DNA from: Escherichia phage vB_EcoM_SA20RB
Sequence record: OL960581
DNA: 64,000 bases
Direction: 5' to 3' (one strand)
In this document: piece after piece, positions 5,994 to 32,181 of the stretch
Layout of the letters: every line of letters begins with the position of its first letter
Numbering within the stretch: the first letter of the stretch is position 1
The notes under the pieces: model-generated
Databases searched by the model: none
What the model saw: the letters and a program-made list of their open reading frames with translations, nothing else
What the model was told of the DNA's origin: nothing
Position numbers and translations under genes: made by a program

Positions 5994-6025
5994 ACATTAT
6001 CCTCAATTGCGTTAAAATTTTATTA

Positions 6026-6048
6026 TCCAAAAAGGGCCGAAGCCCTTA
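6026..6048 (-). terminator. Rho-independent terminator-like hairpin AAGGGC-TTCG-GCCCTT followed by a U-run on the minus transcript
   Basis: Stem-loop followed by TTTTTGG on the minus strand. Confidence 0.5.
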
Positions 6049-6246
6049 GCTAAACTGTTTGGCACCCTTCCAGCCTTCGTACATCATTGCAGCTGATATT
6101 AATATTGCTCCTGCGCATTTTGAATATTTGTGATTCCAAAACCAGTTCAGAAAAACTTCGTCATCAATACCTTGGGCTATCATATTTTCAAAGAACTGAC
6201 GACGAGCTTCGGCAATTCGTTGTGATAATTTAGATTCAGGATTCAT
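6046..6246 (-). CDS. Hypothetical protein
   Basis: ORF-track 66 aa. Confidence 0.45.
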   Translation of the reverse strand: MNPESKLSQRIAEARRQFFENMIAQGIDDEVFLNWFWNHKYSKCAGAILISAAMMYEGWKGAKQFS

Positions 6247-6462
6247 TTAAATTTTCCAGTTACCGTTTTCATCAATGAATTTAATCCAGTCATTTACTGA
6301 CCACTTAGTCGTATCGCCTTTTGGAGCGACATTTAAAGTGTATAATCCTTGTTTAAAAAGCATGCGTTTGATATTCATATTTTCCTCAGCTGTAACGATA
6401 GCACTCGTTTGATTTACGCTTAGCAACTCGTTGAGAAGTATTGTAATCAAAATCATCGTCAA
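6247..6462 (-). CDS. Hypothetical protein (start may be the internal Met near 6381)
   Basis: ORF-track 71 aa; overlaps the next ORF. Confidence 0.4.
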   Translation of the reverse strand: MTMILITILLNELLSVNQTSAIVTAEENMNIKRMLFKQGLYTLNVAPKGDTTKWSVNDWIKFIDENGNWKI

Positions 6463-8121: not shown

Positions 8122-8950
8122 TTATATATTTCCAATTATAGCCTTCAACACTTTTACGTTCGCCATTTAAACATTTTAAAATATTTCCTTTGCTAGAAAT
8201 ATTAAAATATTTTGCTGCGTCTGGTATATAATTAAATGTTTTTAAAAGAACACCATCTTTATATGCGCCAAATAAATTAAGAGTATATTTTTCTCGAAGA
8301 CGCTGATGTTTCCTTTTCATAACCTCAGGATTTGCATACGCCAACCTCAATGAATTTCTATGTTTTTCTTTTACTTCAGGTTTTTGCATTGCTAACTTAG
8401 TTAGCCTGGAAATTTTATTTCTAACTTCGTCAGTTTTCATTGCATTTGACAAATTTAATAAAGTTTTATTTCTAACTTCAGGTTTTTGCATTGCTAACTT
8501 AGTTAGTTCTCTATGTCTTTTTCTAAAATCGTCATCCTTCCATATATTTTTCGATAATTTTGACATAGAGCGGTGAAATAATTCCTTTTCACTGGAATAC
8601 AATTTAAAAATTTCATCCAATTCATCCGCATTAAATCTATCGGTATTCGAGTTTATCATTCTATGAAAGGCATAACACATTTTACTATTGCTTGTTTTAG
8701 CTAAATAGTAATGAGCTAACGCATGGTCATAATATGACAAATTAACAATATTCCATTTATCTGTTTTATATTCAGGAAATATAGATTTGGGAAGCACGTG
8801 ATGTGCTTCCGTTTTTCCTTTTATTTTAGGATTATTATAATTTTTTGTTATCAAATCAACATATGACAATAGTAAATCATTATTTTCTTCAAATATTAAA
8901 GCTAATTTATCATTCACAAAATCGCAAGGATAAAATCTATCGTAATTCAT
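8111..8950 (-). CDS. mobC: HNH-family homing endonuclease-like protein (MobC-like) between nrdD and nrdG
   Basis: 279 aa; HNH-like EAHHVLPKS...NIVNLSYYDHALAH; repeated TKLAMQKPEV module; same position as T4 mobC. Confidence 0.75.
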   Translation of the reverse strand: MNYDRFYPCDFVNDKLALIFEENNDLLLSYVDLITKNYNNPKIKGKTEAHHVLPKSIFPEYKTDKWNIVNLSYYDHALAHYYLAKTSNSKMCYAFHRMINSNTDRFNADELDEIFKLYSSEKELFHRSMSKLSKNIWKDDDFRKRHRELTKLAMQKPEVRNKTLLNLSNAMKTDEVRNKISRLTKLAMQKPEVKEKHRNSLRLAYANPEVMKRKHQRLREKYTLNLFGAYKDGVLLKTFNYIPDAAKYFNISSKGNILKCLNGERKSVEGYNWKYINEL

Positions 8951-25863: not shown

Positions 25864-26049
25864 TTAAAGCGTATTCACATAAGCTATTAATTCGTTTTCT
25901 TTCTTATCAAACCGGTCAGCAAATTCTTCTTGCTGTTCGGGAGATAGCGGGCCGTATTCATCATAAAAGGTGTTTGCTTCTGTATGCTCATCTAGAAGTT
26001 CATGGATAAGCTCAAACAATTTATCTTTTTGTTCTTTACTCAGACTCAT
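25864..26049 (-). CDS. Hypothetical acidic protein (tk.1 position)
   Basis: ORF-track 61 aa. Confidence 0.5.
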   Translation of the reverse strand: MSLSKEQKDKLFELIHELLDEHTEANTFYDEYGPLSPEQQEEFADRFDKKENELIAYVNTL

Positions 26050-26215
26050 ATATTAATTTCCAGGAGTTTTAAAATAATTCGCTTTTGCTTAAATATTTCC
26101 ATAGTTAAATGGTCAGTATCTTTTTGACCGATTCCAATAGCAAAACCTTTATTAACAGCGAGTTCAATTAAATTATCAAGCTCACGTAACACTTCATATT
26201 GTAACTCAAAACTAT

Positions 26216-26443
26216 TCATTTTGGTTTACCTTCTTTAACGAAATCGGGATAAGGATAAAATCCTGAATAAAATCCTTCACCTTTATGATTGATGCATCCT
26301 TTATTAGAACAATAGCACCAATAGTCGAAATCACAAGCCATTTCATCATTACATAAAGCAAAAACAACCGGCCATTTACACTTTTCACAATGGGCATTTT
26401 TAAGAATACTAGTTTGGCTCATAACCATGTAACCTTTAAGCAA
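26216..26443 (-). CDS. Cys-rich small protein (putative zinc-binding), tk.2 position
   Basis: 75 aa with 9 Cys (CEKCKW...CNDEMACDFDYWCYCSNKGC). Confidence 0.5.
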   Translation of the reverse strand: MLKGYMVMSQTSILKNAHCEKCKWPVVFALCNDEMACDFDYWCYCSNKGCINHKGEGFYSGFYPYPDFVKEGKPK

Positions 26444-26631
26444 TATTCTTCTACATGTTGTTTACGACCTTTCCTATCAATAAAGGTATATTCAACAAAT
26501 GTTCCAATATAGTCTTTATCTACATCATGAGGACTATTAATTGGGCATTTAGTACGGCAAATGCGTTCCCATTGACGAATAATTTCTGCTTTGTTTTTAG
26601 GATCAAACGGATGCGGGTAATGTACTTTCAT
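26419..26631 (-). CDS. Hypothetical protein (tk.3 position)
   Basis: ORF-track 70 aa. Confidence 0.5.
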   Translation of the reverse strand: MKVHYPHPFDPKNKAEIIRQWERICRTKCPINSPHDVDKDYIGTFVEYTFIDRKGRKQHVEEYCLKVTWL

Positions 26632-27082
26632 AATCCACCACTATTAAATCAATATCAGGAGTAAACATGTCGATTAATTTAGAAACCTTATCCCAATCAC
26701 CGCCAGCAATACCACAACCTATGCGTGGAATGTAAATTACTGGTTTAAACAAAAGGGTCTCTGCCTGTAGATTTAATTCTATCATGCAGTTTACTAAAGC
26801 ACCATAATCAAGATTAGGACCCGGTTCGTATTGCGTATACAGGTTATAGCATATACCAAATCCCGTAGGACTATGTTTAAAAACAATAGACATATCGCCT
26901 AATTTATCGCGAGAACCGTACTCGGTAGTAGTTTTATCTATTTCTAAAATTTTAGGATAGGCCCTCGCTAATTGACCCGCTACACCTGAACCCATAGTAT
27001 GAAAGCAGTTGCACCCGTGCGCAATAATATTACCTTGAAGAAATAGGGCGACAATATCGCCCTTGATATATTTTACAATCAT
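26603..27082 (-). CDS. Macro-domain-like protein (putative ADP-ribose binding/hydrolase), tk.4 position
   Basis: 159 aa; HGCNCFHTMGSGVAGQL and IPRIGCGIAGGDWDKV resemble macro-domain glycine-rich loops. Confidence 0.55.
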   Translation of the reverse strand: MIVKYIKGDIVALFLQGNIIAHGCNCFHTMGSGVAGQLARAYPKILEIDKTTTEYGSRDKLGDMSIVFKHSPTGFGICYNLYTQYEPGPNLDYGALVNCMIELNLQAETLLFKPVIYIPRIGCGIAGGDWDKVSKLIDMFTPDIDLIVVDYESTLPASV

Positions 27083-27426
27083 CTAGTACTCAATCCTCGA
27101 TTATAAGAATCTACCAAACGGTCAACCATTGAATGACAAGCGGCTTTATCTTTCTCCTCCGCAACTGAACATTCTAAGGTATTCCACTTTTTAGCATATC
27201 GTTTTAACAATGTATCATTTTTATATCTACTTGATTTATCTCTTTCTCCGTCTTTATATGCATATATTAATTTCTGCGCAAATTCAGCTTGGCATGCTTT
27301 ATTTTTCCCACAATAATCTGCCGCAGTGCGATTTACATATTCTCTAATTTCAGTATATGATGTATCTGCTGACGCAGAAGCAGAAAATGAAATTAATCCT
27401 ATACATAAAACCAAAATTTTAGTCAT
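27079..27426 (-). CDS. Secreted small protein in the T4 vs position (115 aa as T4 Vs); function uncertain
   Basis: N-terminal signal peptide MTKILVLCIGLISFSASASA; synteny only. Confidence 0.45.
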   Translation of the reverse strand: MTKILVLCIGLISFSASASADTSYTEIREYVNRTAADYCGKNKACQAEFAQKLIYAYKDGERDKSSRYKNDTLLKRYAKKWNTLECSVAEEKDKAACHSMVDRLVDSYNRGLSTR

Positions 27427-27964
27427 TTACTATTTCCAAAAGTTTATTATTTTTAAGGTAATTAGCCTTTTCTAGGACTTCAGAAGCATATTTAGAACCT
27501 GCTTTAACATTCCATCCCGAATTATAAGAGGATATTGCTTTTCTTATATCACCCTTATGTATATTTAACCAATAAGAAAGTTCAATGTACGCCCAGGAAG
27601 CTGAATTGGATCGTTTATTCAACATTCTTTTTATTTCGGCATCGGTCATATTATAACCAAGTTCCTTAACTCTTGCTCGCATAGTAGGCAAATAATTTTG
27701 GAACATTCCGTAGGCGTGATGCTTTGGTTTAGATTTTAAATTAACTCCGGCAGAGCTTTCTTGCCATAAAATAGCAGCCATTATATGACCCAATCCGCTC
27801 TTGTGGATGTTTTTGTGTGTTTTATATTTTCCATCCTTAGAAAATTGTTCCCCGAATTGATATGCGTAGCGCATGTTATCGAGTTGGACATTACTGAAAG
27901 TATGCTCGGAGCTATGTGCCATCATTGAAATGGCCAATAGACCAGCGAGTAGTGCTTTTCTCAT
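27419..27964 (-). CDS. Secreted lytic transglycosylase-like protein (vs.1 position)
   Basis: 181 aa; signal peptide; SLT-like WQESS...AYGMFQ motif. Confidence 0.55.
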   Translation of the reverse strand: MRKALLAGLLAISMMAHSSEHTFSNVQLDNMRYAYQFGEQFSKDGKYKTHKNIHKSGLGHIMAAILWQESSAGVNLKSKPKHHAYGMFQNYLPTMRARVKELGYNMTDAEIKRMLNKRSNSASWAYIELSYWLNIHKGDIRKAISSYNSGWNVKAGSKYASEVLEKANYLKNNKLLEIVND

Positions 27965-28460: not shown

Positions 28461-28490
28461 ATTATACCACAGTCAAGAGGAAAAGTAAAC
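28461..28490 (-). promoter_or_regulatory. T4-type early promoter (-35 GTTTAC, -10 TATAAT) for regB
   Basis: Minus strand reads GTTTACttttcctcttgactgtggTATAATttttctatcagttaagaggagaataacATG. Confidence 0.65.

Positions 28491-31193: not shown

Positions 31194-32162
<969 letters not shown>

Positions 32163-32181
<19 letters not shown>

Follow-up and report, generated by a model that had tools for sequence, protein, structure and literature searches.

The tk.4 locus and its macrodomain gene

The subject of this analysis is a macrodomain gene, the counterpart of tk.4 (adfM) of phage T4, in a window of 64,000 nucleotides (nt) of DNA from Escherichia phage vB_EcoM_SA20RB (sequence record OL960581). 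The surrounding genes are of the Tequatrovirus (T4-like phage) type and, over 24 kb, the window shows approximately 95–96% identity to several Tequatrovirus genomes, being identical to none. An initial annotation of the sequence had placed an open reading frame (ORF) for a 159-amino-acid, macro-domain-like product at positions 26603–27082, in the interval between tk and vs. The ORF is indeed found between these two genes, and is situated on the minus strand, as are all features of it given below. Its ATG start codon (27080–27082) and a Shine-Dalgarno sequence, GAGGA (27094–27098), 11 nt 5' of the ATG, were read from the sequence, while its TGA stop codon (26603–26605) lies 29 nt inside the next gene, tk.3. 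The start codon shares the letters ATGA with the stop codon of vs (27079–27081), which suggests translational coupling, and the 28 nt upstream of the ORF were found by sequence comparison to be the same in T4.

By profile search, the product scored 32 bits for Pfam Macro (PF01661), where the gathering score is 22 (E = 1.3e-7, profile positions 2–117 of 118), and matched PHROG 335 with E = 1e-71. A tblastn match to the protein was given by 2789 phage records, and the ORF is confirmed as a real gene, far beyond chance. An alignment of 105 homologues, reaching down to approximately 40% identity, was used both for finding invariant residues and as input for AlphaFold2. The resulting model had a mean predicted local distance difference test score (pLDDT) of 94.2 and a predicted template modelling score (pTM) of 0.89, and displays a macro fold with two glycine-rich ligand loops, so that profile and model both agree with the original macro-domain call. 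When compared with the PDB using Foldseek, the best matches were TARG1, Poa1p, BT1257 and the DarG proteins of Thermus aquaticus (Taq) and Mycobacterium tuberculosis (Mtb), with E-values from 5e-10 to 1e-7 and template modelling (TM) scores of about 0.7–0.8. A profile of the family, searched against PDB sequences, gave BT1257 (1.4e-18), TARG1 (6e-16), SCO6735 (2e-15), Poa1p (8e-15) and Mtb DarG (2e-11). Since its nearest structural and sequence neighbors (TARG1, DarG, SCO6735/BT1257 and Poa1p) are located there, the protein belongs to the ALC1/TARG1-like class of macrodomains.

In T4 (NC_000866), the same slot between vs and tk.3 is occupied by tk.4, whose product is 58% identical to the window protein over 155 residues without gaps (E = 1e-70). 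The macrodomain gene is consequently the positional orthologue of T4 tk.4 (adfM), in the form of a strongly diverged allele. The two proteins have in common, apart from the slot vs-tk.4-tk.3, a single-domain macro architecture and the residues H22, N25, T83-Q84 and W130, whereas the window protein is four residues longer and only its gene has the 29-nt overlap with tk.3. Identical DNA (100%) was found in Citrobacter phage CrRp10, and 99.6% identity in Escherichia phage HY01; the BASEL phage AndreasVesalius has an allele with 98.7% identity. The copy in HY01 is annotated as "Macro domain-containing protein", while other records use "phosphatase", "RNase III inhibitor" or hypothetical; the labels "phosphatase" and "RNase III inhibitor" are misleading for this gene.

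The RefSeq entry for T4 tk.4 likewise carries a note on an "A1pp phosphatase motif", and an A1pp (macro) domain in the tk.4 orthologues was reported already in a 2006 comparison of T4-like genomes (PMC1524935). Taken literally, this label would make the protein a small-molecule hydrolase, i.e. an ADP-ribose-1''-phosphate phosphatase (Poa1p-like, "A1pp") or an O-acetyl-ADP-ribose deacetylase, serving in housekeeping or in the degradation of immune signals derived from ADP-ribose. We regard this as improbable, as the phosphatase label rests on the domain name and the protein resembles Poa1p no more closely than it does the hydrolases of DNA-linked ADP-ribose (ADPr).

A function for T4 tk.4 has been published more recently. 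A preprint (bioRxiv 10.1101/2025.11.20.689424) describes a T4 transposon library grown on a host expressing DarTG2, in which only tk.4 emerged as a significant hit; T4 becomes sensitive to DarTG2 when the gene is cleanly deleted. The gene was there renamed adfM (anti-DarT factor Macrodomain), and enzymatic removal of ADP-ribose from DNA was proposed, without enzymology. Such a role explains why T4 ΔadfA ΔadfN remains fully resistant to DarTG2 (PMC11825919). Thus, the macro/A1pp domain of tk.4 has been known since 2003–2006 and its anti-DarTG2 role since the preprint of November 2025. The initial annotation had suggested that a phage macrodomain might reverse ADP-ribosylation imposed by host defenses, with a knockout challenged on DarTG-bearing hosts as a check, and this matches what was published for T4. 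The macrodomain gene can be seen as one layer of the T-even counter-defense against DarTG, alongside AdfA and AdfN. AdfN (T4 30.3; PMC11825919) resembles it as an orphan ADP-ribosylglycohydrolase of T-even phages that is antitoxin-like and clears DNA of DarT marks, but has a NADAR fold, a guanine-ADPr substrate and another locus, and acts on DarTG1, not on DarTG2 (PMC11825919). Knowledge of these layers is relevant to predicting the host range of phages and to phage therapy against Enterobacteria carrying DarTG2.

Active site and probable reaction

Residues were mapped by a hidden Markov model alignment to TARG1 and BT1257, together with a MAFFT alignment of the window protein with T4 Tk.4, BT1257, SCO6735, TARG1, two DarG macrodomains and PhiKZ gp104. 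The numbering of SCO6735 was checked by counting along its PDB sequence against the residues named in PMC9411070. Both glycine-rich motifs pointed out in the initial annotation are present, at residues 22–38 and 118–133, and are aligned with the ligand-binding loops of macrodomains. Loop 1, the catalytic or substrate loop (HGCNCFHTMGSGVAGQL), is encoded at 26969–27019 (codons 22–38) and carries H22 and N25. Loop 2, the phosphate-binding loop (IPRIGCGIAGGDWDKV), is encoded at 26684–26731 (codons 118–133) and matches the PRIGCG[IL]AGG-W pattern of SCO6735 and BT1257. Twelve residues, namely H22, G23, N25, C26, G33, A35, D49, N80, Y82, Q84, P119 and W130, are invariant in all 105 homologues. In the MAFFT alignment, H22, N25 and Q84 correspond to H24, N27 and Q85 of SCO6735, and N25 is equivalent to N22 of Taq DarG and N23 of PhiKZ AdfM (residue roles from PMC9411070 and PMC13309987). 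Codon 84 (CAA, 26831–26833) thereby places a Gln where DarG (K80) and TARG1 (K84) have their catalytic Lys, and where SCO6735 has its essential Gln85.

The closest parallel to such a site is SCO6735 of Streptomyces coelicolor (PDB 5E3B), with Bt_1257 (2FG1/2AFC), which share the Gln-type site and the phosphate loop pattern with the phage protein and differ from it in overall sequence (26% identity) and, in SCO6735, in having K34 where the window protein has Ser32. SCO6735 is without the Lys and Asp residues, and its Q85A/E mutants are inactive (PMC9411070, Hloušek-Kasun et al.). In stripping DarT-made thymidine-ADPr from DNA it outpaces both DarG and TARG1; it rescues DarT toxicity and, through binding, also inhibits DarT (PMC9411070). 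A water-mediated catalysis has been proposed for it, and the reversal of thymidine-ADPr was called the unifying activity of the class (PMC9411070). While SCO6735 is a bacterial gene inducible by DNA damage, the window macrodomain would be a phage early gene. The mobile loop between Q84 and Y93 has 8 residues here, as in TARG1, compared with 14 in BT1257 and 13–14 in SCO6735; across the family it has 8 residues in 76 and 11 in 25 of the 105 sequences. Judged by its sequence, the phage protein appears to resemble the SCO6735/BT1257 subclass in its Gln-type site, not to be a strict member of it. Human TARG1/OARD1 (PDB 4J5S), itself a hydrolase of thymine- and uracil-ADPr, was the top Foldseek match (E = 5e-10, TM 0.72–0.81) and agrees in the length of the mobile loop, but is only 22% identical and has a Lys84/Asp125 dyad in place of Gln84/Ala126.

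DarG itself (T. aquaticus 5M31/5M3E; M. tuberculosis 5M3I) differs in the catalytic Lys, K80 of its FPTK motif, where the window protein has Gln84. We rejected the possibility of a DarG equivalog, as the protein reached 27.7 bits where NCBIfam NF048014 has a cut-off of 250, with only 2–142 of 338 profile positions matched, and lacks the FPTK Lys, a C-terminal DarT-binding domain (its length being 159 residues) and a darT partner. The PADLOC model for DarG gave 27.5 bits, for the macro part only, and no ADP-ribosyltransferase (ART) is found among the neighbors vs, vs.1 and tk.3. The phage protein PhiKZ gp104 is truly related to DarG (E = 9e-25 to Mtb DarG) and has its FPTK Lys. It frees a DNA oligonucleotide of DarT2-made ADP-ribose in vitro, with lowered activity in the N23A mutant (PMC13309987). 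It is approximately 21% identical to the window protein, with a BLASTP match of E = 0.001 over 23 residues. PhiKZ gp104 was also named AdfM, and the name, given by two unrelated groups (PMC13309987; bioRxiv 10.1101/2025.11.20.689424), thus appears to cover two ALC1-like subfamilies with different catalytic residues: PhiKZ gp104 is Lys-type and close to DarG, and T4 Tk.4 is Gln-type and nearest to SCO6735/BT1257. With a Gln-type site like that of SCO6735, the T4-type AdfM would be mechanistically distinct from DarG and PhiKZ AdfM.

We consider it likely that the window allele encodes an anti-DarTG2 thymine-ADPr glycohydrolase, in the form of a single-domain orphan macrodomain. DarT2 ADP-ribosylates thymidine in single-stranded DNA (ssDNA), at a TNTC motif, and thereby blocks replication (PMC11825919; PMC13309987). 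The macrodomain gene would be expressed early, together with the regB-vs.1-vs-tk.4-tk.3 run, as suggested by the co-orientation of these genes, their stop/start overlaps and a promoter-like sequence at 28461–28489. On infection of a DarTG2 host, DarT2 would mark thymidines of the phage ssDNA and replication would stall. The macrodomain protein would bind the ADP-ribose in the cleft formed by its two loops and hydrolyze the bond between thymine and ribose, which would return the DNA to its normal state and liberate ADP-ribose. Catalysis is probably of the SCO6735 type with the invariant Q84; by homology, Q84, H22 and N25 would position an activated water molecule, as opposed to the Lys-dependent route of DarG and TARG1.

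Several observations weigh against this reading. For T4, the evidence is purely genetic and was published as a preprint, and our literature search turned up no biochemistry of a T-even Tk.4 protein; furthermore, 65 of 155 residues distinguish the window protein from the T4 protein to which that evidence applies. Neither the catalytic Lys of DarG/TARG1 nor Asp125 of TARG1 is present (Q84 and Ala126 instead), and the mobile loop is without the 5–6 additional residues typical of the SCO6735/BT1257 subclass, which makes carrying over the SCO6735/BT1257 mechanism an extrapolation. The family profile is roughly equally similar to Poa1p, TARG1, SCO6735 and DarG, and substrate preference is thus not readable from homology alone. 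Lastly, a bacterial homologue (40% identical, 152 residues) is found in the chromosome of Pelagimonas phthalicica (6001–6459) as a standalone gene, in this respect like SCO6735, amid housekeeping genes (peroxiredoxin, M23 peptidase, tryptophan halogenase) and with no DarT nearby. The family is by this context not intrinsically tied to DarT, and the idea of a bacterial origin beside a DarT toxin was dropped, as no ART was present at the one locus inspected, that of Pelagimonas.

T4-like phages encode ARTs of their own, and Alt, ModA and ModB produce arginine-linked ADPr. The macrodomain protein might be read as a protein de-mono-ADP-ribosylase, directed at Glu/Asp-linked marks of a host defense ART or at off-target Alt/ModA/ModB marks, although we give this a small chance. 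TARG1, which is among the best structural matches, and SCO6735 do act on auto-modified PARP1 E988Q as well (PMC9411070), but the Lys84/Asp125 dyad that TARG1 uses for ester-linked ADPr is absent from the phage protein (Q84, A126), cleavage of arginine-ADPr is not reported for any of the nearest characterized relatives in the papers examined (PMC9411070, PMC13036486), and the one phenotype that our search found for T4 tk.4 concerns DarTG2, which modifies DNA. De-mono-ADP-ribosylation of proteins is possible as a side activity. That the gene serves to reverse the Alt, ModA and ModB marks of the phage itself, as the initial annotation had also proposed, does not fit the activities reported for relatives, which are on thymine- and uracil-ADPr and on auto-modified PARP1 E988Q.

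Another reading, chemically plausible but improbable, sees the protein as an RNA base de-ADP-ribosylase, with uracil-linked or other ADPr on phage or host RNA as its main target. TARG1, DarG and especially SCO6735 reverse uracil-ADPr on single-stranded RNA (PMC13036486), and an ART defense that targets RNA exists against T-even phages, namely CmdTAC (PMC11618068). On the other hand, the adenine modification made by CmdT is described as irreversible (PMC13036486), and CmdTAC is reported as a robust defense against T-even phages despite tk.4, in a paper that draws no connection to any phage macrodomain (PMC11618068). A bacterial defense toxin that ADP-ribosylates uracil was not found in the literature examined.

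Two diverged alleles of tk.4

The 58% identity to T4 Tk.4 stands between flanks of otherwise 97–100% identity. The neighboring proteins are nearly the same in both phages (Vs 100%, Vs.1 99.4%, RegB 99.3%, Tk 99% and Tk.3 93% identity), and DNA identity to T4 is 95–100% across regB-vs.1-vs and the first 38 nt of the macrodomain ORF, these 38 nt being identical. It falls to 45–85% in the rest of the ORF and is back at 88–95% in tk.3. The divergent allele cassette, delimited by a 60-nt identity profile against T4, accordingly spans 26603–27044, from codon 13 to the stop codon, with the exchange boundary between the two alleles at codon 12–13 and the first 12 codons identical. Past the first 38 nt, a codon-by-codon comparison counted 65 codons with non-synonymous and 38 with synonymous differences. 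Only five out of 76 syntenic genes were less than 70% identical to T4, i.e. the internal-protein gene ipII (33%), tk.2 (54%), trna.3 (56%), tk.4 (58%) and nrdC.3 (61%).

Codons 7–13 of the macrodomain ORF are spanned by a hairpin (27045–27063) whose stem has 8 bp (AGGGCGATATTGTCGCCCT). The sequence through it equals that of T4, and the identity between the two alleles drops directly past it. The hairpin may mark a recombination boundary, function as an element of the mRNA or have arisen by coincidence. A role as a terminator was rejected, as it lies inside coding sequence identical in T4 and has a poor T-tail.

Both alleles are common: by full-length megablast matches, the window type occurs in 313 phage records and the T4 type in 377. 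The window-type allele has graded relatives (97, 82, 79, 76, 73 and 65% identity) and retains all of the nearly invariant residues of the family, while the T4-type allele is isolated, with every relative that is not of the T4 type at most 59% identical. In the phosphate loop, T4 has GAGIGKG where the window protein and the consensus have GCGIAGG, deviating at A126G and G127K; a Lys in this loop, as in the T4 allele, occurs in only three of the 105 sequences. The window allele is thus nearer to the family consensus, and the T4 allele, which was the one tested experimentally, is the atypical one. Given this, the canonical window allele is more likely, but not certain, to be active too. About half of the examined Tequatrovirus records carry the window-type allele, and the published test covers the T4 type. 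In our literature search, which included the T-even phages of BASEL, no data on a DarTG2 phenotype were found for phages with the window allele. Beyond the published work, the comparison adds the diverged and common allele, the invariant Gln at the catalytic position and the non-DarG status of the protein, leaving the basic picture unchanged.

The protein could also be a stoichiometric inhibitor or sponge that binds DarT2 or sequesters ADP-ribose ligands, with catalysis dispensable, but to us this seems very improbable. Catalytically dead SCO6735 Q85A, DarG K80A and TARG1 K84A do inhibit DarT in vitro, SCO6735 the most (PMC9411070), and the rapid surface divergence between the alleles would be compatible with selection on a protein-protein interface. 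Nevertheless, none of the 105 homologues, down to approximately 40% identity, departs from H22, N25 and Q84, which argues for retained chemistry, and the dedicated C-terminal domain with which DarG binds DarT has no place in a protein of 159 residues.

Further, tk.4/adfM might be a two- or multi-allele specificity locus under balancing selection, with alleles neutralizing different DarT2 variants or base-ADP-ribosylating toxins. The basis for this idea is the 58% identity between alleles that are each carried by several hundred Tequatrovirus genomes with little other difference between them; we propose it tentatively, as rather unlikely. The alleles could then prefer different substrates or sequence contexts, or differ in binding the toxin directly, as SCO6735 does. 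If so, the mainstream window allele could have a broader or different spectrum than the T4 allele.

Expression signals and neighboring genes

A sigma-70-like promoter match lies ahead of regB at 28461–28489 on the minus strand (TTTACT-17-TATAAT, preceded by TG), and is a candidate early promoter of the co-oriented and tightly packed regB-vs.1-vs-tk.4-tk.3 run. A consensus scan found 11 sigma-70-like sites in the region, compared with 15.4 expected by chance in shuffled sequence, i.e. no excess. With the scan count not above chance, all promoter assignments other than the site upstream of regB were dropped. Short ORFs opposite the macrodomain gene (e.g. 26455–26664, plus strand) were also discarded, having no family support and being unannotated in related phages.

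The Cys-rich small protein that the initial annotation had placed at 26216–26443 was recovered in a 68-residue form starting with ATG (26216–26422, minus strand), with a match to Pfam Phage_zn_bind (PF23895, E = 2e-29). It is followed by an ORF for a 57-residue protein without family (26046–26219, minus strand) and by a DUF7438 ORF (25864–26049) whose product is 54% identical to T4 Tk.2. The two small ORFs at 26046–26443 lack a counterpart in T4 and take up its tk.1/tk.2 region. The whole interval from tk to tk.4 is thus a variable island.

On the other side of the macrodomain gene, the secreted proteins anticipated at 27079–27964 correspond to vs and vs.1, whose N termini are signal-peptide-like by inspection only (MTKILVLCIGLISFSASASA... 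and MRKALLAGLLAISMMAHS..., respectively). An SLT transglycosylase domain was found in vs.1 (E = 5e-5). The product of vs is annotated as "valyl-tRNA synthetase modifier" and is 100% identical to that of T4; a signal-peptide-like start is odd for a supposed modifier of a cytoplasmic tRNA synthetase. In minimal medium, vs was the most strongly depleted gene (HIDEN-SEQ preprint).

An orthologue of nudE is located at 31729–32181 on the minus strand, 4.6 kb from the macrodomain gene, with a product 97% identical to T4 NudE. According to RefSeq, T4 NudE is a Nudix hydrolase that acts on ADP-ribose. The macrodomain reaction is predicted to yield this same compound, but a functional link between the two is speculation.

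When positions 1–42000 of the window were compared with T4 30–80 kb, further diverged genes were 55.3 (72%) and nrdG (79%), and tblastn gave no match in this comparison for denV, ipIII, 49.2, 49.3, e.2, e.7 and tk.1. The window also contains a homing-endonuclease-like ORF at approximately 8126–8848, the product of which is only 27–38% identical to T4 mobB/C/D.

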